From positions 36,161-100,160 of IMG/VR virus record IMGVR_UViG_3300002026_000069: a DNA stretch of 64,000 nt. One strand, given 5' to 3'. Source of the DNA: a virus. The notes under the pieces were generated by a model, which saw only the letters and a program-made list of their open reading frames with translations, was not told where the DNA came from and searched no databases. Each line of letters starts with the position of its first letter. Position 1 is the stretch's first letter. Of this stretch, positions 2,578 through 62,570 are shown piece by piece. The position numbers and the translations under genes were made by a program.

Positions 2578-2882
2578 ATCTAGAACTTATTGAAGATGCA
2601 ATTGAGAAGATTGCCGATGGTGCCGCTATGGCTAGGAAGGCTTTAGGATCGGCTAAATTAATTAAACCTGACACTCAACTCTCTAAGGGTCTTATTACAC
2701 AAGGAGAGCATAGGAGTAAAATTAAAACTATGCTTTCATCTGCAAGACTACAGAGAGATAGTAAAGCTGGTAAATTAGCTCCTTTGGGTTCTGGTCATAA
2801 AGCGTACCCAGGTGTATATGAAGCTCCAATTAAATATGAACACGATGTATCAAGACCTGGATTCTTAAAAGTAATTAAATGA
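2574..2882 (+). CDS. Tagged small basic protein (putative head cargo)
   Basis: Starts MNLELIEDAIEKIA, a tag shared with 5159 and 12666. Confidence 0.6.
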   Translation: MNLELIEDAIEKIADGAAMARKALGSAKLIKPDTQLSKGLITQGEHRSKIKTMLSSARLQRDSKAGKLAPLGSGHKAYPGVYEAPIKYEHDVSRPGFLKVIK

Positions 2883-4273
2883 AACCCATCCCAGGCTTCC
2901 CTGGCTATCACATCTCTGAGGATGGTAAAATTACCAATCCTAAAGGGAAGTTGTTAACCAGAAAGGATGCCTGGGAAGGTTATCCAAGAGCGCGTCTAAA
3001 GAACGAAGAAGGTAAGTTCGTTAATAGAAAGATTCATCGTCTTGTAGCCTTGGCACATCTTGGCGTTAACGACGGTGAGATTCGTCATAAAGATAACAAC
3101 AGAGCTAATGTAGCCGTTCATAATCTTGAGTGGGGAGATAGATTCTCAAACGCTCAAGATAGATTAGCTCGCGGGTCATATCATCTAAAGACAAAGCTTG
3201 TGGGTGGGAAAAGCCTACTTGTCTTAGGTGACGATAAGTACCTAGATCCTGAAGCTAAGAAAGTTTATAAGGTTACTGATCATCCTATTGGCGAAGAAGG
3301 TGTGATACCTGTAACATCATTAGAGAAGGTTGCATATTATCGTAAATATGCTCTCATTGATTTAGATACAGGAAAAATTCAAAGTGGATTAAATACATAT
3401 GTTAATTCTGAAGAGTTTAGAAAAAGGCATATAGAGAAGAAGGCTTTCCTACGTCGTTTTTTAAAACCAAATGTAGCTGAACATGCATTTGATGCCGTAT
3501 CCAGCGTTCAACTGCCTGGAGGTATGATTGGCAATGCAGTGACATCTGCAAAGCATGCTTATCAAGGCATTAAACCACATTTAGGTGGACCTGAAACATT
3601 ACTTACTAAGAAGAAGATACTTAAGCCATCACCTGTATTTAAGGGACTTAACATCCCGTCTGTTCAGCACGGAGTTTACACAAAGAGAGGACTAAAGGAA
3701 GTAACTGCTTCTAAGCTATATCCAGAAGCTCATGAGTTACTATTTAATAGATTTACTCCTATAGAGCTATTAAAGGGTATTAAGAATAATCGTAAGTTTG
3801 ACGGTAATTCCATTGATTATATTAAAGCCAACTTCCATCCAAGGAAGCTTGTAGATAAAGCTAACGCTGGTCATGAAGAGGCAAGAAAACTCGTAAAAGA
3901 GTTTGACTATGCAAGATCTGGCTTTGTTAAGAAAGCCGAATGGACTTCCAAGAAGAACGCTGATAGTCACGCATTAAAGCATGCAGATGAAATGGGATTA
4001 ACAAAAGAGCAATATATTGCTCTGGCTAAATCAGCATTGAATGATAAGAAGTCTTTAATTAGCATTAGGGGTGATATACATAAGTCTCGTCATGGTAAGA
4101 ATATTTTAGTTCATAAAGATGGAAAAGTAATTACTTATTACTCAAAAGTGGCTTACATTCGTAAAATTAAGAAGGGACTAGAGAGAGGTATTGATAACTT
4201 CCAAGATTGGGGTTATCATCAGGATGTCATTCAAACACATCAAGATATCAAAGAGAAGCGAAAGAAGAAATAG
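2879..4273 (+). CDS. NUMOD4/HNH endonuclease fused to K-x-A-delimited modules, including a toxin-like RNase module
   Basis: IPGFPGYHISEDG, HRLVALA, HKDNNRANVAVHNLEW; then EKVA, EKKA, KKA and KVA boundaries; HALKHADEMG..EQY..A module. Confidence 0.7.
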   Translation: MKPIPGFPGYHISEDGKITNPKGKLLTRKDAWEGYPRARLKNEEGKFVNRKIHRLVALAHLGVNDGEIRHKDNNRANVAVHNLEWGDRFSNAQDRLARGSYHLKTKLVGGKSLLVLGDDKYLDPEAKKVYKVTDHPIGEEGVIPVTSLEKVAYYRKYALIDLDTGKIQSGLNTYVNSEEFRKRHIEKKAFLRRFLKPNVAEHAFDAVSSVQLPGGMIGNAVTSAKHAYQGIKPHLGGPETLLTKKKILKPSPVFKGLNIPSVQHGVYTKRGLKEVTASKLYPEAHELLFNRFTPIELLKGIKNNRKFDGNSIDYIKANFHPRKLVDKANAGHEEARKLVKEFDYARSGFVKKAEWTSKKNADSHALKHADEMGLTKEQYIALAKSALNDKKSLISIRGDIHKSRHGKNILVHKDGKVITYYSKVAYIRKIKKGLERGIDNFQDWGYHQDVIQTHQDIKEKRKKK

Positions 4274-35754: not shown

Positions 35755-36653
35755 ATGGCTACTTCTGCTTTGATTGGTGGATGATGAAGATAATTCACCA
35801 GTGTAATATCTTCTAACTTGAAATCAAGCAGACTGTCAAATCCATTTGTTTTCTTATCGTTTAATACGAGCTTCGGAAGGTCCATCTCTCTACGAGATAA
35901 TAATTCCTCAACTTGAGGAAAATGATTCTTGTAAATATGCAAATCACCAAAGGTATGAATGAATTCCTTGGGCTTTAAACCGCAGACATGGCCGATCATA
36001 CAGGTGAGCAGGGCGTAGCTAGAAATGTTAAATGGCACCCCTAGAAACGCATCTGCTGACCTCTGGTAAAGCTGGCAGGAGATGTAGCCATCCCTGACAT
36101 AGAAATGGAAAAGGGTATGGCACGGAGGAAGTGCAACTTCGTTTTGTTCCTTCGGATTCCAGCCTGTAACAATTAATCTACGGCTATTAGGATTCTTTTG
36201 AATCTCATTGATCAGCCACTTGATCTGATCAACACCATTATCTTCGAAGCCTGGGCAGATAAATCGCTTTGTCGAGTTAGAAAAATATTCAGCCTCTTTG
36301 ATATCGGAACGCTTGAAATAAGCTCCGAAATTTCTCCATTGATGGGAGTAGATCGGACCAAGATCATTTACATTACGATCATATTTAATCGTATGTGGAA
36401 GATCAGACCATTCATTCCAGATAGTGCATTTAGTTGCTAAAAGACGACTGTTATCACACGATCCAGATAAGAACCAGAGAAGTTCATTAGTTAAAGTTTT
36501 GAATGCAATTCTCTTGGTCGTTAGAATCGGAAATGGATCTAATGAATATCTCGTTTGATATCCAAAGACGCTTTTCGTTCCAACTCCAGTACGATCCGAA
36601 TGGTCAGTACCATTCGTGAGAATGTGTTGAAGGAGTTCTTTGTATTGTTTCAT
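35751..36653 (-). CDS. thyA: Thymidylate synthase
   Basis: DRTGVGT, LGPIYSHQWR, ALPPCH, YQRSADAFLGVPFN, HIYKNH. Confidence 0.97.
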   Translation of the reverse strand: MKQYKELLQHILTNGTDHSDRTGVGTKSVFGYQTRYSLDPFPILTTKRIAFKTLTNELLWFLSGSCDNSRLLATKCTIWNEWSDLPHTIKYDRNVNDLGPIYSHQWRNFGAYFKRSDIKEAEYFSNSTKRFICPGFEDNGVDQIKWLINEIQKNPNSRRLIVTGWNPKEQNEVALPPCHTLFHFYVRDGYISCQLYQRSADAFLGVPFNISSYALLTCMIGHVCGLKPKEFIHTFGDLHIYKNHFPQVEELLSRREMDLPKLVLNDKKTNGFDSLLDFKLEDITLVNYLHHPPIKAEVAI

Positions 36654-41395: not shown

Positions 41396-41471
41396 TGGCA
41401 CCGGAGCTGAGATTCGAACTCAGAGTCAGGGATTAGAAATCCCATGGTTTATCCAGTTAACCGACCCCGGC
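41396..41471 (-). tRNA. tRNA-Arg(UCU)
   Basis: Cloverleaf, loop TTTCTAA, GTTCGAATC, CCA. Confidence 0.85.
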
Positions 41472-41996
41472 ATGCCTTTTATTCCAGTATCCTCTTGGAG
41501 GCTTGGAGATTCCTAATAACTTACATCTTTTTTCAAGTGCCTTATCTGAAACTCCATACTCTTTTGCGATAGCACTAGTTGGCTTAGTCCAAATAACTGA
41601 TTCAATTTCTTCTTTAGTTGGATTAAATTTCCTCCTAGAGGAATCAGCACATTTATGGCTGCAATATTCACTATGCTCTTTGTCGGCTATAAAAGGAGTA
41701 TTACATGCTTTACAAACTTTATTTTTATCAAATAATTCTGGATGATGCTCTTTTGCATGTTCCGATCTAGTCATAACCACTACATTATCTGGAGCGTTAT
41801 TTCCTCTTACCGTATCTTTATGATGAGCATCTTCATTACAAAGCCACCTACCAAGCTTTACTGAAGCTATATGTCTATGCATATAGACTTTACCTGACTT
41901 ATTCGCTAATGGATGAGACTTATCCATGAAATATTCATATTTAAGAGTCTTGTCTACAGATATTTTCTTTGTAATGAGATATTCAGAAGGAAGCAT
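41457..41996 (-). CDS. HNH homing endonuclease
   Basis: YMHRHIA..KLGR, HHKD...NNAPDN, CxxC, C-terminal HTH; stop lies inside tRNA-Arg. Confidence 0.85.
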   Translation of the reverse strand: MLPSEYLITKKISVDKTLKYEYFMDKSHPLANKSGKVYMHRHIASVKLGRWLCNEDAHHKDTVRGNNAPDNVVVMTRSEHAKEHHPELFDKNKVCKACNTPFIADKEHSEYCSHKCADSSRRKFNPTKEEIESVIWTKPTSAIAKEYGVSDKALEKRCKLLGISKPPRGYWNKRHAGVG

Positions 41997-42047
41997 TCGA
42001 ACCTCTCGCTTCTAAAGTATAGAAGACGGAGGTTCGAATTCAAGGGG

Positions 42048-42446
42048 TCAATTATTAGAAGCCGCAAGAACATCTTTAAGATACCTTGGCGAACTTTTAC
42101 TAGGACCAGCATTGTATTTCTGAATAGTTAACATCCAATCCTGTTTTCCTGAATTTTCATACAGCCAGACAAGATAACGCCTAGCGCAATCTTCGGCAAG
42201 GACTTTATCCTGCTCGATCATCCAGAACTGTTCACCTTTACGTTTAATCTGATTGAACGCAATCTTCTTCATCTGAAAGCATCCAAGCTCTCCATCTTTA
42301 CCGCGAGTCATATCAACATATTTAATCGTGCCATCTGCACGGTAATATGATTGAGTTTCAACCTTTAGAATGCCGACCATTACATATTCTGGAACTTCCA
42401 CTGCTTGTAAAGTTATTGATAGCAATAACATGAGAACAAAGCGCAT
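42048..42446 (-). CDS. Lytic transglycosylase/lysozyme-like protein with signal peptide
   Basis: Signal peptide; ILKVET catalytic Glu, GELGCFQM, YNAGP. Confidence 0.7.
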   Translation of the reverse strand: MRFVLMLLLSITLQAVEVPEYVMVGILKVETQSYYRADGTIKYVDMTRGKDGELGCFQMKKIAFNQIKRKGEQFWMIEQDKVLAEDCARRYLVWLYENSGKQDWMLTIQKYNAGPSKSSPRYLKDVLAASNN

Positions 42447-42510
42447 GTTTTCCTTTTCTAAAGATCGGTGGGTAGGATATATATGTTATACCCTACCCAC
42501 CAATAATTGT

Positions 42511-43020
42511 TTAGACCTTCGCTGAAGTCACCTTAAGCGGTGACATTTCACGATCAATCTCTTCTTTCTCTTCCCGTGCGATATTGAGATAGATTGTCTC
42601 TTCAAGAACTTCTTGAGCGATCTCTTGAGCTTGATCAATGAGATCAGATGAGAAGTATTTCGCAGCCTTGAAGCTGATTGAAACAGGCTCAAGGGTGACA
42701 GTCTTACGAAGAATGATTCCTTCAGGGAAATGCTTCTTCCAAGACTCAGGCATCTTCGACTTGCCAGCATCATTAAAGACATCAACAACGATATCAATGA
42801 TATGCTTATCGTTGTTCTGAATGACAGTGATGTAATCGCCTTCAGCGAAGCACTTACGGATTACCGTATGTGCAGCATGTTTGCTGAACTGATCCTTGGG
42901 TGACTTGAATGCGAACGCAATCTTGACTTCTCCGATATGATCATCGGGAAACTCATAACCTATGGTCACAGAATGACCAGTCGGCAGATGGCGATGCATG
43001 AACTTAGTTTGACGGCTCAT
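42511..43020 (-). CDS. Hypothetical protein (likely start 43020)
   Basis: SPKDQFSK motif; biased codons. Confidence 0.5.
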   Translation of the reverse strand: MSRQTKFMHRHLPTGHSVTIGYEFPDDHIGEVKIAFAFKSPKDQFSKHAAHTVIRKCFAEGDYITVIQNNDKHIIDIVVDVFNDAGKSKMPESWKKHFPEGIILRKTVTLEPVSISFKAAKYFSSDLIDQAQEIAQEVLEETIYLNIAREEKEEIDREMSPLKVTSAKV

Positions 43021-43720
43021 TGGGGCTTTCTGTGACCTCAAAGTGGATGATGTCTCTCCTTGCAGCGAATTTCTGAGCCGGAAGCTCAGCTTCGTTTGCA
43101 AGGTGTTTCTTTATAGCTTCGATTTGATTATTGTCAACCCTCCAAAGTAGTTGACCAGCGTAACCCTGTGTAGATGGAGCAATTCGACGCTCCTTCCACA
43201 TAGTTCTAATATCAGTTGGAGTACAAGCACACACAGCAGCTAACTGCCGTGTTGAGATTAATTCATTCTTGCTAACGAGAGCAAGAGCTTCGAAGAGTTC
43301 AATCTTGCTTCTGCAAGCTTCTTCGATCTTTGCAAAGACAACTCTCGAATTTGCATCAAGCCATGATGGATCAGTCTGCTCTACATAGGCAACGAAAGCA
43401 TCTGCATACTGATCAACAATAAAGTTTAAGTTAGCATCTAACTTCGACGGATCTTCGCAGATCGTCTTCGTAAGAGCTACAACACTCGCTGGAATCGATA
43501 CTCCATCCAGCTTTTTGGACCAGAATGCTTTTTGACGAAACAGCTTTTGAGTCGATGCCAAAGCATCTCTAGGAAGCTTTTTAATCTCATTAAGATTATC
43601 TTCATTGAGATCCCACCTTCCGTTGATGCGATTTGGACGCTTAATCTTCCCGTGAGAAATTAGTTGATTAATATCATTTGGTTCGATCTTTAAGAGATCA
43701 GAAACCTGATGGACATCCAT
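43004..43720 (-). CDS. Two-HTH (MerR/excisionase-like) DNA-binding protein
   Basis: QVSDLLKI....INQLISHGKI and STRQLAAVCAC...IRTMWKERRI. Confidence 0.55.
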   Translation of the reverse strand: MDVHQVSDLLKIEPNDINQLISHGKIKRPNRINGRWDLNEDNLNEIKKLPRDALASTQKLFRQKAFWSKKLDGVSIPASVVALTKTICEDPSKLDANLNFIVDQYADAFVAYVEQTDPSWLDANSRVVFAKIEEACRSKIELFEALALVSKNELISTRQLAAVCACTPTDIRTMWKERRIAPSTQGYAGQLLWRVDNNQIEAIKKHLANEAELPAQKFAARRDIIHFEVTESPNEPSN

Positions 43721-43852
43721 GTGATTATTCCTAGTGAGGATACGAATGTTATTTTACCATAAAATAAAGCTCGGTGTTTTGTATAAAGTATAAGATCTTT
43801 ATTCTCGTAAGTCTTTAAACTTACCTTGAAAATAATTTCTTCTATTGAATCT

Positions 43853-44680
43853 CTATGTCTTTTGATATCCACTAAGAAACGCCAAGGTAGGAGAAGATTT
43901 GACATAAAAGCCCGAAGCATTCTTATGACCACCCCCTCCGAAAGATTCTGCGATAACGCTACAGTCAACATCTCTTCTACTTCTGAGTGAGATATAAATC
44001 CCACCTTCACTAGAATCTGCATACGACGCAACGATTGTGCCTTTTCCTTCAGCAATAAGTTTATTTCCGACTTCGGATTGAAGTATGGGAGTGTTAACGA
44101 AAAGAACTTCATGACCTAAGAGAGTTCCTTTTCTGGCCTTTGAACAAAGCGTATTAACTTGTTGATCAATGTAATTTTGAATAGCGCGTCCCTGAGAGAT
44201 ACAGTCATTAAAATTTTGCTCTAATGCTTCATGCATCTTTCTAAAATTTTCAAATGAACGCTCAAATTGAAACATATATGCACTGATTTCATCTGTAAAA
44301 GGTAGTTCCTTTTTCCAGAGATCTCGGTCCTGAATATATCGGATCAATTTAGGCGCTGGGAAAACCCCGTGGACGAACTTCCATGCCAGCATGGCTCCCG
44401 ACTGCCCCATGTCAAAATGTGCGAATTCTAGCCCCTGCAAATCGGCCTCTGCCGTCTTGTGGTGGTCCAGAACCGTAACCGGAAATTTAGCTGCTAGATC
44501 TAGAAGCACATTTCTCTTAAACGAGAAGTCTACAATGTATACATGTTCAGCATCAGGCATCTGAGGCGGATCTTTGCTATATTCACATGGGATATATGTA
44601 TAGTTAGGGAACTTTAGCCAGAACGCATAAGCGGCTCCAGTGCCGTCATTGCAGTTCTTATGGAAGAGAACGTATTTCAT
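43853..44680 (-). CDS. DHH/DHHA1 phosphoesterase
   Basis: CNDG, IVDFS, LDHHKT, DRDLW, SLRS, GGGGHKNASG. Confidence 0.9.
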   Translation of the reverse strand: MKYVLFHKNCNDGTGAAYAFWLKFPNYTYIPCEYSKDPPQMPDAEHVYIVDFSFKRNVLLDLAAKFPVTVLDHHKTAEADLQGLEFAHFDMGQSGAMLAWKFVHGVFPAPKLIRYIQDRDLWKKELPFTDEISAYMFQFERSFENFRKMHEALEQNFNDCISQGRAIQNYIDQQVNTLCSKARKGTLLGHEVLFVNTPILQSEVGNKLIAEGKGTIVASYADSSEGGIYISLRSRRDVDCSVIAESFGGGGHKNASGFYVKSSPTLAFLSGYQKT

Positions 44681-46015
44681 GTTATGGGACTTAGTTGGAG
44701 GATGTCGTTTAAGTCGAAGGAAAATTGAATTGGATAATCAAATACAGTCCATGGATTTATTTCTGCATCTACTGGATCTAATGAATCGTAAGTATTAGAC
44801 CACATCATACTTTTTTTACCTAAACGCTCTTCGATCCATGGATTCTCAACAATCCTAACATATCTGTTGGTGTAATACTCAAACGCATAAGTATTACCTG
44901 CTTTGTCTAAAAGATAGATATCTGCATCTATCTTTAGGCTTACCTTTAAACTAGTTAATACTGCATGTTTAAAATCGTTAGCGCATATTGCTTTAATCAA
45001 AGACATATATTGGAAACTTTGTGAATGACATGATTTCCCATTCTTTTAGTGTTGGACAGTACCAACCGTAACCAAATTCATTCTTTTTATATAACGTATG
45101 ATTGTTATTTGAGATTAATAATTTCCAATCATCGTTATTACCGTCAGTCCATAATACTTCTTCGTCTACATTCAGATCTACTTTGAGTAGAGTCTTGAGA
45201 TAATCTTTAAATTCCTGTACTGATAATATGACGCGCATGGATGCGATTATCCTTCATGTACTTTAAAATATCTTTTATATTTAAATTCTTTGGAATAGTA
45301 AGTGTGAAATCATCTTTAATATAAGCCATAGGACTTAAGATAGGATCTATTTTTATTATCTCGTCTTCTCTGGTGCAATAAGCATAGAAGCAATGCGGTT
45401 CAAATATAAAATTAGTATTGCCGTTAAAGACATAGATCTTCCATGGAAGATCTAGGGACATTTTTAATAATAGATAGTTATTAAATTCTTTTAAATTCTG
45501 GAAGTGGCTCTTTGGAAACCTTAAGCGGCGTGTCAAAGTCAACTAAGTAATCTCCTTCAGGTGTGCGTTCGAAAGCTAAAAAACGTCTGATGACAGCCAT
45601 CATCTCGTAAGAGATCTTTGACTCTTCACATGCTCCACCAACACCATATGAAGCACCACGTTCAAGATTTGGAAAAATAATAGTCTTAGCTATTTCTAAA
45701 TACTTATTTGCTTCCTGATGGTCGTATGGTCCATGAATCTTGTGAGATACTTCTGATAGTTGCCCCATTAAGATTCGAGAGTAAAGATCCAAAGCCTCCT
45801 GTAGAACTCGGGCCTGCGTTTGATTCACAGAAAGCTGATAGTTCTTCGAATTTGACGGTGGCGAGATGCTCGTACCATTGGGTTTCCCCGATTTGCTTTT
45901 CGACAAGGATTTTCCCGTCTGTAGAGGTTAGAATGCGAAAACAACTATAAAAAAACTCTTTATTAAGTTTTAAATTTATTGCAAACTTAACTTGCTCAAG
46001 TATTTCTGGATTCAT
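44677..46015 (-). other. Run of small hypothetical ORFs
   Basis: Overlapping coupled ORFs. Confidence 0.45.
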
Positions 46016-46021
46016 AAGAAA

Positions 46022-46126
46022 AACTCCGCTTACCTTTATACGGAATCCTCACAACAAGTGAGGATGGTCCCAAACAAGCCCGATTCGACACCACTGTGTA
46101 TGAATTTCTGTTTGGATTGGTTTATG
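46022..46126 (-). ncRNA. Candidate small structured RNA
   Basis: CCAAACA/TGTTTGG stem, ATCCTCAC-TTGTT-GTGAGGAT hairpin, TCCG/CGGA hairpin. Confidence 0.3.
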
Positions 46127-46600
46127 TTAGTTTGATTTCCATTCTATTACTTCTTCGTTTTTAATTTGTTCTGTATCCAGAGAACCATACCATCCCTGCT
46201 CTTTAGCGGTTCTTCTTCTATGACAATTTGCACATAGAATCTCGCATTTATCAATTTCAATTTGAATATCCTCTGGTTGATATCCTCCTGCAACCATTGC
46301 GGAGATAAGAAATCTTTTATCTCTTAAATGATGAAATTCAAGAACCATTGGATCTTTTTCGCTACAATCGACACATTGATTCTTTAATAAGAATTCATAG
46401 ACGTATCTTCTTCCTATTAATCTTCTTTCTCTATTCCTTTGATCTACATATTCTTTTCTTCCTGAACTTAAATCTGCATGTTTAGCATTATTATGCTCAC
46501 GATAACATTGCTTGCACCAATAAGCATATCTATTTTTAGCTGTGATAAACCCGAATTCAGATTCATCTTTTGATAGTTTGCATTTTGTACATGTGATCAT
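46127..46600 (-). CDS. HNH endonuclease
   Basis: CTKC..WCKQC; CVDC...LEFHH...KCEILCANCH. Confidence 0.85.
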   Translation of the reverse strand: MITCTKCKLSKDESEFGFITAKNRYAYWCKQCYREHNNAKHADLSSGRKEYVDQRNRERRLIGRRYVYEFLLKNQCVDCSEKDPMVLEFHHLRDKRFLISAMVAGGYQPEDIQIEIDKCEILCANCHRRRTAKEQGWYGSLDTEQIKNEEVIEWKSN

Positions 46601-46647
46601 ATCTGATATGATATGATTTAAACTTTAGTAGTCAAGACTAAAAGTAG

Positions 46648-46723
46648 TGGTGCGCTCAGTAGGATTCGAACCTACGACCCGAACATTAAAAGTGTTCTGC
46701 TCTGCCAACTGAGCTATGAGCGC
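46648..46723 (-). tRNA. tRNA-Lys(UUU)
   Basis: Cloverleaf, loop CTTTTAA, CCA. Confidence 0.95.
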
Positions 46724-46792
46724 ATTTAATTTACATGTATTTAGATTATACCTTATCAATTGACAAAATTCAATAGCTATTAAAATAGTGTC

Positions 46793-47230
46793 ATGCTTAA
46801 ACTTTCAGAGTCCGCACTTGTTGAGAAAGGAATGAAATTTCTTTCAGCAAGAGGCGAACAAATATTCGGAAAAGTTAAACCTAAAGTTAGTGCCAGAACT
46901 GCATATACTCATGTAGCTAAGCCTGAAAAAGCTTATGAAGCTACTAAAGCTTTTGCAAAAGCTCCAGCTTTAGAAGGTAATCCAGCTACAAAAGTAATTG
47001 GATCACCAACTCCGCATACAAGGGGTTTACGCGGTCTTCCAATGAATCAGACTGCTGGATTTGCAAAGAGATCAACTCCTATTGCAAGACCAGTTCATCC
47101 TGAGTTACATCCAACTGAACCAGTTGGAAATACAAGAGATTGGTATCACGGGAATAATCCAGCGAACAGAGAGCCTACTGTATCAACATACAGAAAAATT
47201 AAAGGCGCTATCTCTAAGATTAATTCTTAA
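46793..47230 (+). CDS. Isolated + strand basic protein
   Basis: TTGACA-N15-TAAAAT ends 6 nt before the ATG; K/R/P-rich. Confidence 0.55.
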   Translation: MLKLSESALVEKGMKFLSARGEQIFGKVKPKVSARTAYTHVAKPEKAYEATKAFAKAPALEGNPATKVIGSPTPHTRGLRGLPMNQTAGFAKRSTPIARPVHPELHPTEPVGNTRDWYHGNNPANREPTVSTYRKIKGAISKINS

Positions 47231-47429
47231 TCTGCTGCTGACCGCCATTATCTGCTGGCGGTTCTGGAATCTCCATCGGAGCAGATTGGACATCAATTCC
47301 ATCTACTCCAACAGATACGCTATCGGAAGCTAGAATATTAATAGCTAGTGCGATAGAGATAAGAAGAACGCCGATTCCAACAAGCCACCATACTGCGGGT
47401 GGAATGCGACCAGTGATGTTATAGGGCAT
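47220..47429 (-). CDS. Single-TM small protein
   Basis: VWWLVGIGVLLISIALAINIL; TTGACT-N16-TAAACT leaderless promoter. Confidence 0.6.
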   Translation of the reverse strand: MPYNITGRIPPAVWWLVGIGVLLISIALAINILASDSVSVGVDGIDVQSAPMEIPEPPADNGGQQQIKN

Positions 47430-47465
47430 GGGCTTAGTTTATTTTTATAAACATGTAAGTCAATA

Positions 47466-48120
47466 CTAAAAAAGAGCATACCAAAGATCCTTCCGACGAA
47501 GCATAGCTTGCTTGTCTCTTTGGTACTGCTTCAATGACTCATTATCTAAGTACAGACAAAAAAGATCGTGCGTCGGAATAACTTATATAGTTATAGGACG
47601 CACGATTCAAAGACACAGAGCTATAATAAGGGTAATTGACCCTTTACGTTATAAATCGCATTGGATTGCTCCGCTGAATGTTTACAGTCTTTTTGGGTTA
47701 TTTTACACACCCGACACAGGTTAGTTTCTATAGGTAGCGTCTAACGAGGTTTAACTTCTACATCGCATACAGTCCCTTTCTTTGGTTAGAAAGACAAGCC
47801 AGAGGTATCTATGTCAAGCACGCGGAGTGCGTGTGATGAGGATAATATCATACCGTGCTACCCAGCATGATCGACACAGTGCAATAAGTATTTCTCATTC
47901 CCGCTTTAGTAAGCATATACGGGCGATCATACGACTTTATATAAAGTCATACTAACAAGGATGTTTCTGTAACTCCTTACTAAATCACAGAAGACACATG
48001 TTTATCAAATCCCTTTAGCATACATTTGGTAAGTCGTGTATGCTGGGTGGTCTTGAGTAGAAATATTCTACTCAAGAAATACTACTTTAGTCGCATGATG
48101 CGTTCCTTTCACTAAAGTTG
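47466..48120. ncRNA. About 650-nt highly structured non-coding region
   Basis: No credible ORF; many inverted repeats. Confidence 0.5.
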
Positions 48121-48124
48121 TTTG

Positions 48125-48214
48125 TGGCGGAAGCTAGAGGATTCGAACCTCTGGAACCCGTTAGGGTTCACTTGTTTTCAAGACAAGCCTAATAGACCGC
48201 TCTAGCAAGCTTCC
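48125..48214 (-). tRNA. tRNA-Ser(UGA)
   Basis: Long variable arm, loop CTTGAAA, CCA. Confidence 0.95.
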
Positions 48215-48217
48215 AAG

Positions 48218-48430
48218 CGACAGCCTCCGTTGGGATTTGGCTCAATGATTCAACATTGATATCTTAACTCCGAAGAGTCAGAAACCTTACTCTGTCAATC
48301 TAGTTAAACTCAGATCCAACGATCTGATATTGTATTCGTTACTCCGATCATACAACGTGATCCTTGCCTAATTCTCAGGGGTAACAGGAAGTTTTCCCAA
48401 TAACTGGTTACTTCGTTTCGGCATAGCTGA
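48218..48430 (-). ncRNA. About 210-nt multibranch structured RNA between two tRNAs
   Basis: Ends pair (CAGCT/GGCTG); TTGGGA/TCCCAA; several hairpins. Confidence 0.5.
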
Positions 48431-48431
48431 A

Positions 48432-48506
48432 TGGTAGGCCCACATGGAGTCGAACCATGGTCTGAGCGTTATAAGCACCCGGCTCTAACCGTTGAGCTAT
48501 AGGCCC
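48432..48506 (-). tRNA. tRNA-Ile(UAU)
   Basis: Loop CTTATAA, GGGCCTA acceptor, CCA. Confidence 0.9.
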
Positions 48507-48959
48507 GCGATTGAAGATTTTGTTGAACATTAAGTCTTTCCACTAAGTCATCTAATTCTACCCATACAGCATACATATCAAAGACATAAGCATTTGATTC
48601 AGCGAACAAATCTTTATCGCTGTATGTCCATGTTTGTCTTAAGATAAACATTCCATTCCTCAATGGATGCATAATGTATGTATCATCAAGTCCGAGAGAC
48701 TTCTTTAAATTAAATGCTTCGGTTATCTCTGATTTTAGCTTCATATAAGTATTTGTAATATGCTATGAAGTCTTCAGCTACCCATCCAACTTCATAAGCC
48801 ATAACTTGTGTTCTTGGGGATAGAATTCTGCAATACCGCATCTTTCCACAGACACGATATCCAATTACATAATATGTATTACTAACAACACAAGGTTCAC
48901 AGAAAGTTATTCCAAGGTGGATTTTTGTTAAGATAGCATCCATGTCGTTCCAGACACCC

Positions 48960-49500
48960 GAATAGAGGAAAGGAGGAACTCTTCCGGTTTCCCGAGAGCG
49001 TACTGCTGTCAGGCATGCGATTTGTTTATTTGTCGCAACTTGCAGTTATTCACTGCCGAATCGGGATGGGACTCCAGACTTACCATTGAAGCAGTAAGAT
49101 ACCCATATTTGCACCTGTATGGAACTTAATCCAATTGAGGTAGCTCGCCACGCTTTTTTGCTGTATTTAGCTCTCTGTTACTACGACCCGAAAGTAGGCA
49201 TTGGTTTCTTTCCAACCAATAAAGTCACAGGTCGCTATTAAGCTAATGTCCTGTCATCAAGCCGTTCTTTCCTGCTAGTGCAGCATGGAAACGATTCACT
49301 ACATCGTCCTCATTGTGGCGCTTACTTGCCTAGTTACTGATTAGCCAGTTAAGGCCCAATTCACTAGTAGAGGTAATTCACATCAGCAGAGTTTCGCTGG
49401 ACACGGCCTTGATTTATCTTCCAGATGCTATTAACTGGTAATAACGAAGGGCGATCATATCGTGTCATTTTTACGAGAACCGAACTCGCAGGCAGCCTTG
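48960..49500 (-). ncRNA. About 540-nt large structured RNA candidate
   Basis: Starts just after the tRNA-Glu CCA; many hairpins and long-range helices. Confidence 0.6.
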
Positions 49501-49503
49501 AAA

Positions 49504-49578
49504 TGGTAATCCCGAAGGGAGTCGAACCCTTGTTACCAGAATGAAAATCTGAGGTCCTAACCGCTGGACGACGGGATC
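49504..49578 (-). tRNA. tRNA-Glu(UUC)
   Basis: Loop TTTTCAT, GGTTCGACTC, CCA. Confidence 0.9.
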
Positions 49579-60680: not shown

Positions 60681-61330
60681 TTGAACATATGTCCTGATTT
60701 TTCAGACCACCAGATCATATCTAGATATTTCTCTGGTATGGATAAACTTCTGGCATAGTTGACAATACACTCTTCAATTAACCAGTAACGATACTCTGTA
60801 AGAGCTATCTCCTTTACGAAGATACCTTCGCAGTATCTAACGGCTGGAGATAGATGTTCATATCCTTCAGACTTATCATACCAGCGATTGATATAGCAGT
60901 TCAGAATATGACGATCAACGATTGCTATGCCATCACTCCTTCCTGCATTACGACAGAGATGACTGGCTTCCTTTAGTCCATATCCCTTGATCTGTGCAGC
61001 AAAGATATTACGAACCATCTTAGAGTCACTGTCTCCTGAATAAATATCGTAATATTCCTTTGCGCGTTCTAAGAATATTTGAATATTATCGAACTTATTA
61101 TTCTTAAACCTAACGCCATTTCTACCCATAATATCAGGGGTGATCTTGATCAGATCGCCTTTAACTTCATCTAATACAGCCTGTGAAGCTAAAGCTTTAC
61201 TCTGCGGAGTCATCAAACAAAATACAGCTTCGTGTTTAAATTGTTCAAAGGTTGGGTTAGACACCCAATTCTTCTGCTCGTTTAAAATTAGTTCATTCTT
61301 TAATGTTTCATACGTCTGTGCATCGTTCAT
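60677..61330 (-). CDS. ogg: 8-oxoguanine DNA glycosylase/AP lyase (OGG2-like HhH-GPD)
   Basis: FCLMTPQSKA, GVRFKNNK, IKGYGLKEASHLCRN.G...IAIVDRHIL, YLDMIWW. Confidence 0.85.
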   Translation of the reverse strand: MNDAQTYETLKNELILNEQKNWVSNPTFEQFKHEAVFCLMTPQSKALASQAVLDEVKGDLIKITPDIMGRNGVRFKNNKFDNIQIFLERAKEYYDIYSGDSDSKMVRNIFAAQIKGYGLKEASHLCRNAGRSDGIAIVDRHILNCYINRWYDKSEGYEHLSPAVRYCEGIFVKEIALTEYRYWLIEECIVNYARSLSIPEKYLDMIWWSEKSGHMFK

Positions 61331-61383
61331 GTTATGACCTAAAAAAAGAGAGTAGGTTGCCGCCCTACTCTCTTCAAAAGATA

Positions 61384-61713
61384 TTACTTCTTTTTCGCCG
61401 CTTCACGCGCAGCGATGGCAGCCTTGGAACGCGAAGGACGAATCCTCTTCGCTGGAGCCTTCTTCTCGATAGGCTTCTTCGTGGTCTTCTTGGCTTCCGA
61501 AAGTGCAGCAGGAGCTACGACTTCCTTTTTGACGACAACTGGAGCTTCGACTGTAACATCGTAAACTTCATTGGCGATAGTGATTTCGAAACGCTTGGAA
61601 GAAGGATTCTTCGCAGCATAACGAGCAATGTAGCGAGCAGGAATGCCAGCGATGCCTTTATCGGCAACGTCGGCAGTATTGCTGCCTGGGGCGATGGTAA
61701 CGTGAGTTGCCAT
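61384..61713 (-). CDS. Histone H1-like basic-tailed protein
   Basis: AKKTTKKPIEKKAPAKR...AAKKK; biased codons. Confidence 0.55.
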   Translation of the reverse strand: MATHVTIAPGSNTADVADKGIAGIPARYIARYAAKNPSSKRFEITIANEVYDVTVEAPVVVKKEVVAPAALSEAKKTTKKPIEKKAPAKRIRPSRSKAAIAAREAAKKK

Positions 61714-61781
61714 GTAGTTAAACCTTGGTATTGTTTAGAAGTTAATAGTAAAGGGGTTGCGCGTATAATGATCTCATACCA

Positions 61782-62042
61782 TTATTTTTGAAACATTTTT
61801 GCGAACAAGAAAAAGATAATAACAGCAAAGAATGCTATTGCACCAATGGTTATAAAGAACACCCAAAGAAGAATTCTAAACGCTATTCGTAGTAGCAAGA
61901 TGCTAAAGGGAAACCACCATGGAACCCAGCCAACTATCGCTGGAATAGCGAATATGAATAACCAAGCCCAAGATAATGTTATAGGCCAAGTGACTGGCGC
62001 ATTTGGGTTTTTAGGTATCTGTTTGTAGCTGAAGTCTTCCAC
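61782..62042 (-). CDS. Small membrane protein
   Basis: Long hydrophobic stretch. Confidence 0.55.
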   Translation of the reverse strand: MEDFSYKQIPKNPNAPVTWPITLSWAWLFIFAIPAIVGWVPWWFPFSILLLRIAFRILLWVFFITIGAIAFFAVIIFFLFAKMFQK

Positions 62043-62496
62043 TTGTTTAAAGTATCCTTATCTAGTGGAGTTTTCTTAGGAAGAAAAGTTTCTTTTATGA
62101 TCTTTCCTTCAAATACTACCTGAACTTTAATATTATCGCTTTGCTCTACGATTACTAACTCTGAGTCCAGGGAGCAAGAATCCTGGGTTGAACATGAATT
62201 CTGTCGCACCGTCTTCTCCAAGGATTTTACATGGGATGATATTTCTACTTATCTCATATCCGCGTAATAGATCTGGAAGATGATCCCATTGACAGAAGAT
62301 CTTTGGACGGAACTTGTGACCAATATCAGTTATATATCCATGATTAGTAACAACTACTCCACATCCACTTGTAAGTAATACAAAGTTATTTCTTCCAGTT
62401 AATATATATGCTTCATTGATATTCAGATCAAGTTTATACTTAATCTGATCTAGAAATTTCTTCCATGATTTAGGTTTGAATTTACGATACTTCATG

Positions 62497-62570
62497 TGGT
62501 TGGCCCATATGGATTCGAACCATAATGAAAGGAGTCAAAGTCCTCTATCCTACCGTTAGATGATGGGCCA
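62497..62570 (-). tRNA. tRNA-Gln(UUG)
   Basis: Loop CTTTGAC, U1-A72, CCA. Confidence 0.92.

Follow-up and report, generated by a model that had tools for sequence, protein, structure and literature searches.

A phage known from a single incomplete contig encodes 14 tRNAs, 13 of which carry a wobble U (U34, a T in the gene), every one in a different codon box and none duplicated; together they serve 13 of the 14 A-ending (NNA) sense codons, the exception being CGA. This set carries to an extreme a tendency already seen in phage T4 and marine cyanophages, and it probably represents the same ordinary codon compensation by supplementary tRNAs as in T4 and the cyanomyoviruses. The window analyzed here comprises 64,000 nt (positions 36,161 to 100,160 of IMGVR_UViG_3300002026_000069) and ends where the source contig ends. 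The contig is 100,160 bp long and rated 55% complete, leaving about 45% of the phage genome beyond it, and its source is best explained as an uncultured large tailed phage with a genome of roughly 180 kb and a GC content of 39%. Neither ThyA homology (at best 45–49% identity, to Bacteroidales) nor Shine-Dalgarno use in the phage gave a usable host signal.

All 14 genes lie on the minus strand, in a putatively early region, and are spread over 21 kb (positions 41396–62570; Table 1). ARAGORN called 13 of them, and Rfam model RF00005 recovered the same 13 plus a fourteenth at 57407–57478(-), with all scores (45.8–73.8 bits) above the gathering cut-off of 29 bits. Together with reading of the sequence itself, the two programs return the same 14 genes as the preliminary description, which had claimed one gene for each of 13 A-ending codons, Arg UCG as the sole gap, and Asn GUU as the sole non-U34 tRNA; all three claims hold. 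No further tRNA was found anywhere in the 100,160-bp contig, and a relaxed Rfam scan (E≤1) of 34–64 kb yielded neither an extra tRNA nor a pseudo-tRNA.

Table 1. tRNA and HNH endonuclease genes in the window, with supporting evidence
Feature	Position	Strand	Evidence	Remarks
tRNA-Arg (UCU)	41396..41471	-	ARAGORN; Rfam 50.6 bits	Loop TTTCTAA, G73, CCA encoded; decodes AGA/AGG; ~5 kb from remaining array, likewise in G001 and T5
HNH homing-type endonuclease	41457..41996	-	Pfam HNH_3 2.9e-8; phrog_15471 4.9e-31	3' end overlaps tRNA-Arg 5' end
HNH endonuclease	46127..46600	-	phrog_2255 7.5e-30	Directly downstream of tRNA-Lys
tRNA-Lys (UUU)	46648..46723	-	ARAGORN; Rfam 73.8 bits	Loop CTTTTAA
tRNA-Ser (UGA)	48125..48214	-	ARAGORN; Rfam 52.2 bits	Long variable arm; best match G001 Ser-UGA, 76%
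tRNA-Ile (UAU)	48432..48506	-	ARAGORN; Rfam 59 bits	Loop CTTATAA, A73; AUA decoded without lysidine requirement; Ile-UAU also in G001, G016, L008, L018
tRNA-Glu (UUC)	49504..49578	-	ARAGORN; Rfam 59.7 bits	
HNH endonuclease	49557..50054	-	Pfam HNH_3 2.2e-8; phrog_14913 6.7e-19	3' end overlaps tRNA-Glu 5' end
tRNA-Leu (UAA)	50318..50404	-	ARAGORN; Rfam 52.5 bits	CCA, 2 nt, then ATG 50315
tRNA-Thr (UGU)	52233..52306	-	ARAGORN; Rfam 68.3 bits	
tRNA-Leu (UAG)	53436..53519	-	ARAGORN; Rfam 54.5 bits	CCA, 3 nt, then ATG 53432; upstream ORF stop directly adjoins 5' end (0 nt)
tRNA-Val (UAC)	54658..54731	-	ARAGORN; Rfam 67.1 bits	No encoded CCA
tRNA-Ala (UGC)	55312..55387	-	ARAGORN; Rfam 62.2 bits	G3:U70; CCA, 4 nt, then ATG 55307
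tRNA-Gly (UCC)	56968..57041	-	ARAGORN; Rfam 68.4 bits	U73; CCA, 5 nt, then ATG 56962; 78% identity to G001 Gly-UCC
tRNA-Pro (UGG)	57404..57478	-	Rfam 45.8 bits; not called by ARAGORN	C1-G72, A73, CCA; within 3' end of open frame 57366-58052
tRNA-Asn (GUU)	58500..58574	-	ARAGORN; Rfam 60 bits	Non-U34; position corresponds to first tRNA in G001 array (synteny anchors)
tRNA-Gln (UUG)	62497..62570	-	ARAGORN; Rfam 57.2 bits	First transcribed; CCA, 1 nt, then ATG 62495

The genes have the features of genuine tRNA genes. Anticodon loops are 7 nt long with U33 and a purine at 37, A37 in the 13 tRNAs called by ARAGORN and G37 in tRNA-Pro, whose loop reads TTTGGGA (Pro-UGG); the 3' CCA is encoded in all but tRNA-Val, and identity elements agree with the assignments (for Ala, Gly and Pro as listed in Table 1, with G73 in Asn and Ser and A73 in Leu). 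The one irregularity is the atypical T-loop of tRNA-Pro (CTCGGAA), which explains why ARAGORN misses the gene; judging from this aberrant loop, the tRNA may be impaired.

A set of this composition is far above chance expectation, because only 63 of 175 tRNAs pooled from related phages (36%) have U34. At that share the binomial probability of at least 13 U34 tRNAs among 14 is 1.6e-5, and 13 distinct U34 anticodons did not occur once in 1,000,000 random draws. The tRNAs read synonymous codons that the phage prefers: NNA is used more than NNG in 12 of the 13 boxes with a U34 tRNA (e.g., GGA.45 vs GGG.06, AGA.51 vs AGG.09, CCA.48 vs CCG.11, and TTA.30 vs TTG.08). The exception is Lys, where the tRNA is encoded nonetheless with AAA (.43) less used than AAG. 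CGA, which has no tRNA, is used least of all NNA codons in the phage, at 0.16% of all codons and 4% of Arg codons. The earlier proposal finds partial support: a systematic kit for A-ending codons fits this NNA preference and the CGA gap, its GC-rich host is conjectural, and its nuclease variant is considered below.

The phage's choice of tRNAs does not simply follow its commonest codons. Under standard wobble rules the observed set reads 47.5–48% of phage codons, more than 99.3% of random 14-anticodon sets, whereas the frequency-optimal 14 anticodon classes would cover 64% and include 10 G34 readers. The set is not frequency-optimal, and therefore selection appears specific to NNA codons rather than to abundant codons in general, which points to a host-side supply problem limited to NNA codons. 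Wobble U is what would be expected where a phage overuses A-ending codons (PMC4032129).

Asn-GUU aside, codon compensation here would take a narrowed form, with one wobble-U isoacceptor for each A-ending codon that the phage really uses. Transcripts shared with neighboring small genes would supply the tRNAs, which host RNase P and 3' processing would excise and host enzymes would then modify and charge. This would make NNA readers, and NNG readers through U:G wobble, more plentiful in a host that favors other synonymous codons and supplies NNA readers least, while host tRNAs would still decode NNY codons, Met, Trp and CGN. We infer in this scheme that the tRNAs are expressed and modified, that the phage benefits from them, and that phage and host are mismatched. 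The homing endonucleases beside the tRNAs are probable drivers of turnover, through which tRNA content could come to track codon usage.

Well-studied phages show parts of this arrangement. All eight T4 tRNAs read NNA codons, seven with U34 (Arg-UCU, Thr-UGU, Ser-UGA, Pro-UGG, Gly-UCC, Leu-UAA and Gln-UUG) and one an AUA-reading Ile, and all eight specificities recur here; T4 is likewise AT-rich, with a homing endonuclease (segB) among its tRNAs. T4 is nevertheless unrelated, and it has eight NNA readers in a tight 1.4-kb cluster as opposed to 13 plus Asn dispersed over 21 kb between small ORFs; its Ile gene has a CAU anticodon needing a lysidine-type modification, in contrast to UAU here. In the cyanomyoviruses Syn9, S-RSM4 and S-PM2, which are low in GC, T-starting anticodons dominate and have been read as compensation in GC-richer hosts, and the core set combines Asn-GUU with Leu-UAA, Thr-UGU, Arg-UCU and Val-UAC (PMC3152331). 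Our phage shares the low GC, the T-starting dominance and Asn-GUU, but is unrelated to these phages, whose larger sets are less pure.

Phage T5 has the same layout: its tRNAs lie on one strand, scattered between small early ORFs and HNH genes, with Arg-UCU set apart. Its 11 U34 tRNAs are almost the same in kind as those here, and its codon usage is similar (T5 third-position A.30). It differs in having about 14 extra G34/C34 tRNAs (including Met, fMet, Trp, Phe, Tyr, His, Asp, Cys, Ile-GAU, Ser-GGA and Ser-GCU), where our phage has only Asn-GUU. T5, whose codon usage is almost identical, keeps a full mixed set, so codon usage by itself cannot dictate a U34-only set. The closest cultured phage, Salmonella phage Arash (TerL 31%), likewise places a minus-strand tRNA region after its structural module, but with 24–25 mixed tRNAs, one of them suppressor-like (CUA).

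The purity of the set could be an artefact of truncation, the contig having caught the part of a near-complete mixed array, like that of T5 or Arash, that holds the U34 genes. Only 1.4 kb separate tRNA-Gln from the end of the incomplete contig, beyond which there may be more tRNAs, G34/C34 types among them, and relatives have 17–46 tRNAs of mixed types. The closest complete relative, G001 (IMG/VR UViG 3300021181_000006; 184 kb, 94% complete; TerL 68–70% identical), makes this unlikely. Its array is syntenic and matched in gene order (Asn, Pro, Gly, Ala, Val ... Glu, Ser ... Arg-UCU), with Trp, Ile-GAU, Met, Thr-CGU, Phe and His scattered between its U34 tRNAs. G001 has no tRNA upstream of Asn or elsewhere outside this one region, and collinear anchors put the end of our contig outside it. 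Non-U34 genes are missing from our phage at the matching sites; for instance, the 366-nt gap between Pro and Gly holds neither Trp nor a pseudo-tRNA. The phage tRNA-Gln, however, has a position upstream of the start of the G001 array, so the arrays differ at that edge. Had the phage 8–12 extra tRNAs in random order, the probability that 14 consecutive genes would hold all 13 U34 ones would be only 7e-5 to 3e-6. Because the G001 array is interleaved and G001 has no tRNAs outside it, our phage, as far as gene order can tell, probably lacks most G34/C34 tRNAs genome-wide. Many such tRNAs elsewhere in the genome would have undercut the earlier reading; the 100 kb available hold just Asn-GUU, and G001 argues against more.

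Codon and tRNA content shift together between the two phages: Leu-UAG is present in ours, where CTA stands at.13 vs.07 in G001, and other codons differ likewise (ACA.31 vs.22, AGA.49 vs.22, CGA.04 vs.12). The U34 share tends downward with rising GC, from 93% in our phage (39% GC) to 54–65% in G001 (41%) and 26–46% in relatives of 47–56% GC.

U34 tRNAs such as Lys-UUU are targets of several known anticodon nucleases, and the set could consist of spares for host wobble-U tRNAs that are cut by such enzymes (PrrC/RloC, PARIS AriB, Cas13a-type collateral cleavage) or destroyed as the phage breaks down host nucleic acids. Replacement against anticodon nucleases is an established hypothesis for other phages (PMC10264068), and G001 encodes an Rnl2-family RNA ligase (PF09414, 4.3e-17) in a part of the genome missing from our contig. 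Even taken jointly, the two versions seem to us rather improbable. Thirteen specificities go beyond the few targets of any single nuclease, and the composition tracks phage codon preference, down to the lack of a CGA reader. The anticodon loops, judged from the phage genes alone, are canonical, with the standard CUUUUAA in Lys and no visible escape substitutions; no RNase family was detected in a suspected protein at 2879–4273, and a search of the phage for tRNA-modification or modification-blocking genes found none. The suggestion in the preliminary description that the tRNAs replace host ones destroyed by a nuclease consequently finds no direct support.

In Mollicutes and organelles, a single U34 tRNA can read all four codons of a box (superwobble). 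A minimal decoding set of unmodified U34 tRNAs, largely independent of host tRNAs, would suit seven of the eight four-codon boxes, in each of which a U34 tRNA is the sole isoacceptor (Leu CUN, Val, Ser UCN, Pro, Thr, Ala and Gly, with none for Arg CGN), would let the 14 tRNAs read 71% of phage codons as against the share under standard rules, and would fit an Ile-UAU that makes TilS unnecessary; it is very improbable all the same, since the tRNAs of the 100 kb leave C, D, F, H, M, W and Y unserved, together with AUY, AGY and CGN (29% of codons), so that the phage cannot be host-independent, and the negative search for modification enzymes also counts against it, modification status being unreadable from DNA.

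Apart from their anticodons, six of the phage tRNAs are followed by the start codon of the next gene 1–5 nt past the 3' end. Such close junctions (0–5 nt) number six in our phage, four in G001 and nine in G013, and leave no room for a ribosome-binding site between tRNA and start codon. We tentatively raise the possibility that tRNA genes in this lineage are doubly used, as a purified wobble-U kit and as punctuation marks. Excision of the tRNAs from a polycistronic transcript would then, as it does in animal mitochondria, leave mRNAs that are near-leaderless, and NNA-reading tRNAs and translatable early messages would be released in step. These butt joints are the less expected feature of the region and merit separate follow-up.

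With codon compensation as the favored explanation, the set leaves the current understanding of phage tRNAs unchanged. Its value is as about the cleanest natural example of an AT-leaning phage with wobble-U tRNAs, 13 of 14, and a gap at the very codon, CGA, that the phage avoids, alongside a complete relative that shows which tRNAs differ. Once its host is found, this phage would be a good case for separating codon compensation from the replacement of tRNAs destroyed during infection.

ARAGORN identifies 13 minus-strand tRNA genes in the window, and Rfam recovers the same 13 plus one more, which reads as Pro-UGG. Together they carry thirteen distinct U34 anticodons (those starting with U, which read A-ending codons), one per A-ending codon with CGA alone unserved, plus Asn-GUU. 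The preliminary description had listed exactly this set, with Asn-GUU as the sole non-U34 tRNA, and the two programs together bear it out. G34 and C34 tRNAs were looked for in the rest of the 100,160-bp IMG/VR virus contig (55% complete by CheckV; the window is its bases 36161–100160 and ends where it ends), which holds no further tRNA. A relaxed Rfam scan of 34–64 kb likewise added no tRNA, pseudo-tRNA or ribozyme. The assigned identities agree with anticodon loops, discriminator bases and acceptor features, and the CCA end is encoded in 13 of the 14 genes. The tRNA-Pro-UGG gene, missed by ARAGORN, has an atypical T-loop (CTCGGAA), a sequence feature that could weaken this tRNA. An open frame of 228 codons runs through the gene, which lies within the last ~37 codons of the frame; its N-terminal HTH match is weak and under the Pfam cut-off.

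The UAU anticodon of tRNA-Ile is rare in bacteria. The tRNA-Ile-UAU of this phage would be able to read AUA without TilS or lysidine; ATA makes up 24% of its Ile codons. This tRNA recurs across several unrelated uncultured phages, and in G001 (IMG/VR UViG 3300021181_000006, a near-complete relative) it accompanies Ile-GAU.

Coordinates of features in the window and in related phages (window positions unless a record is named)
Feature	Position	Strand	Remark
tRNA genes found by ARAGORN	41396–62570	−	13 genes
tRNA-Pro-UGG	57407–57478	−	Rfam
tRNA-Ile-UAU	48432–48506	−	also L087:14780–14852 (G001) and uncultured phage loci L173, L008, L018
Open frame through tRNA-Pro	57366–58052	−	
Start codons abutting tRNAs	50315, 53432, 55307, 56962, 57402, 62495	−	
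Large terminase	plus-strand half	+	phrog_675, 7e-73
HNH endonuclease genes	41457–41996, 46127–46600, 49557–50054, 2879–4273		
Stretches poor in ORFs	47466–48120, 48218–48430, 48960–49500, 58087–58489		among tRNAs
Anchor 1	59466–60158		G001 95,049–95,624; E 2e-15
Anchor 2	61384–61713		G001 94,129–94,302; E 2e-6
Rnl2-family RNA ligase	G001 C1:68005–68571		PF09414, 4.3e-17
tRNA with CUA anticodon	Arash 49176–49247		

The large terminase lies in the plus-strand half, together with the major head protein and tail genes. From ~35 kb on, minus-strand genes encode a thymidylate synthase, a DHH phosphoesterase, a deoxyribonucleotidase and an Ogg-like glycosylase; HNH endonucleases number at least three, and many small ORFs belong to no known family. 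In the tRNA region nearly all genes lie on this strand, as do the tRNAs themselves. By megablast, the tRNA region has no match among cultured phages. A consensus scan for sigma-70-like promoters yielded fewer sites than shuffled sequence does and so provides no promoter evidence. Four stretches among the tRNAs lack minus-strand ORFs of at least 50 codons; the first contains just two short frames of 70 and 57 codons, both on the plus strand. Within 34–64 kb, neither GOLLD, ROOL, ribozymes nor any other non-tRNA Rfam family matches at E ≤ 1; in T5, the equivalent region encodes unnamed stable RNAs.

Homologues of the large terminase (TerL) occur at 85%, 70% and 65% identity, with a large family of 175–197-kb phages at ~40%. 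The nearest (P0001, 85%) comes from an 84-kb Logan contig; G001 (184,466 bp, 94% complete, IMG/VR) is 68–70% identical, and the closest cultured phage, Salmonella phage Arash, 31%. U34 genes account for 13 of 14 tRNAs in this phage, compared with 13/28, 10/33, 5/19 and 12/44 in the tRNA-rich IMG/VR family members G013, G016, G017 and G022, 11/24 in Arash, and 7/13 in G001 (10–11 of 17 with relaxed calling). Pooled over ten related phage records, the share is 63/175, or 36%, at which background at least 13 of 14 would be U34 with a probability of 1.6e-5; none of a million random draws contained 13 distinct U34 anticodons. The tRNA set is confirmed and non-random. Several other searches were uninformative: one for relatives, starting from the DHH phosphoesterase, retrieved 80 phage loci that are unrelated and have few tRNAs; the 5′ half of tRNA-Ile, used as an exact pattern, hit generic tRNA sequences only; and a metagenome scan with the Ogg-like protein gave one 3.7-kb contig without tRNAs. 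Arash, G017 and a further record, G014, each have a tRNA with the amber-reading CUA anticodon, labeled Pyl by ARAGORN; the copy in Arash is entered in its record as tRNA-Phe.

Could the U34-only appearance be an artifact of an incomplete contig? We consider this unlikely. Gene order is conserved in the G001 array (Asn, Pro, Gly, Ala, Val ... Glu, Ser ... Arg-UCU), and a pair of protein anchors shared by the two phages sits immediately upstream of tRNA-Asn. G001 interleaves Trp, Ile-GAU, Met, Thr-CGU, Phe and His with its U34 genes, whereas the matching places here lack them, and it has no tRNA outside the syntenic region. With 8–12 additional tRNAs placed at random, 14 consecutive genes would include all 13 U34 genes with a probability of 7e-5 to 3e-6. 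On the other side, tRNA-Gln lies only 1.4 kb from the contig end, at a place upstream of the start of the G001 array, and a few more tRNAs may follow past that end.

Codon usage was taken from crude ORF calls (27,586 codons). Third positions are T.38, A.30, C.165 and G.16; within purine-ending pairs, A is favored in 12 of the 13 codon boxes served by a phage U34 tRNA, and CGA is only 0.16% of codons. Relative to G001, CTA, ACA, AGA and GGA are used more and CGA less, in parallel with tRNA content. The 14 tRNAs would read 35% of phage codons under strict pairing, 48% if U34 reads A and G, 63% with cmo5U-type reading of family boxes, and 71% with superwobble. Under standard wobble the observed set outperforms 99.3% of random 14-sets, yet it falls well below the frequency-optimal set, which covers 64% and consists mostly of G34 readers, since codons ending in C or T make up 55% of the phage total. 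We therefore regard the set as tRNAs for A-ending codons, not for the commonest codons, a specificity expected if the host is well supplied for NNY codons and poorly for NNA codons. The preliminary interpretation is supported in part: a systematic kit for A-ending codons fits the preference for A in the served boxes and the avoidance of CGA; the GC-rich host that it invokes for an AT-rich phage is conjectural. As to the host, the best cellular matches of ThyA are in Bacteroidales (45–49% identity), which we reject as a host inference since identity is too low and the result depends on the search patterns used; Shine-Dalgarno motifs precede ~31–45% of crude gene starts and are non-diagnostic.

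The other explanation offered at the outset, that phage tRNAs replace host tRNAs destroyed by a nuclease (PMC10264068), is unsupported: anticodon loops are canonical, Pfam and PHROGs recognize only the N-terminal HNH/NUMOD4 part and no RNase family in the protein at 2879–4273, and MnmA-type (PF03054) and TilS-type (PF01171) genes are absent from this contig and from G001. G001 encodes an Rnl2-family RNA ligase, in a part missing from this contig; a link to tRNA repair is possible, and as regards the nuclease idea the ligase offers a lead rather than evidence.

The tRNA genes are squeezed in between ORFs. An upstream stop codon lies 0–8 nt before six of them and overlaps the 5′ end of four others, and at six tRNAs the next ORF (at least 76 codons) starts 1–5 nt past the CCA. 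With a chance of 2.4% per position, six such starts have P = 5e-7 for random positions; none is preceded by a Shine-Dalgarno-like motif. The same junction occurs at four tRNAs in G001, one of them the matching Gly, at 9 of 28 in G013 and at 1 of 25 in Arash, and is absent from T4, T5, G016, G017 and G022. This arrangement suggests that tRNA excision would release near-leaderless mRNAs. The junctions resemble mitochondrial-style tRNA punctuation, for which a literature search turned up no precedent in phages.

Of at least four HNH homing-type endonuclease genes, three directly adjoin or overlap tRNA genes, much as T5 hegA/C/D and T4 segB lie beside tRNAs; these endonucleases likely drive tRNA gain and loss between relatives. 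T5 has this dispersed layout too, HNH genes included, with a nearly identical choice of U34 genes, but carries ~14 G34/C34 tRNAs in addition. The eight tRNAs of T4 are seven U34 genes and an AUA-reading Ile, whose CAU-anticodon gene we take to be the AUA reader from the record annotation and established knowledge; all eight specificities are present in this phage. By analogy, its set of tRNAs for A-ending codons appears to follow the classic T4 logic, and it is a very complete example of an already known phenomenon.
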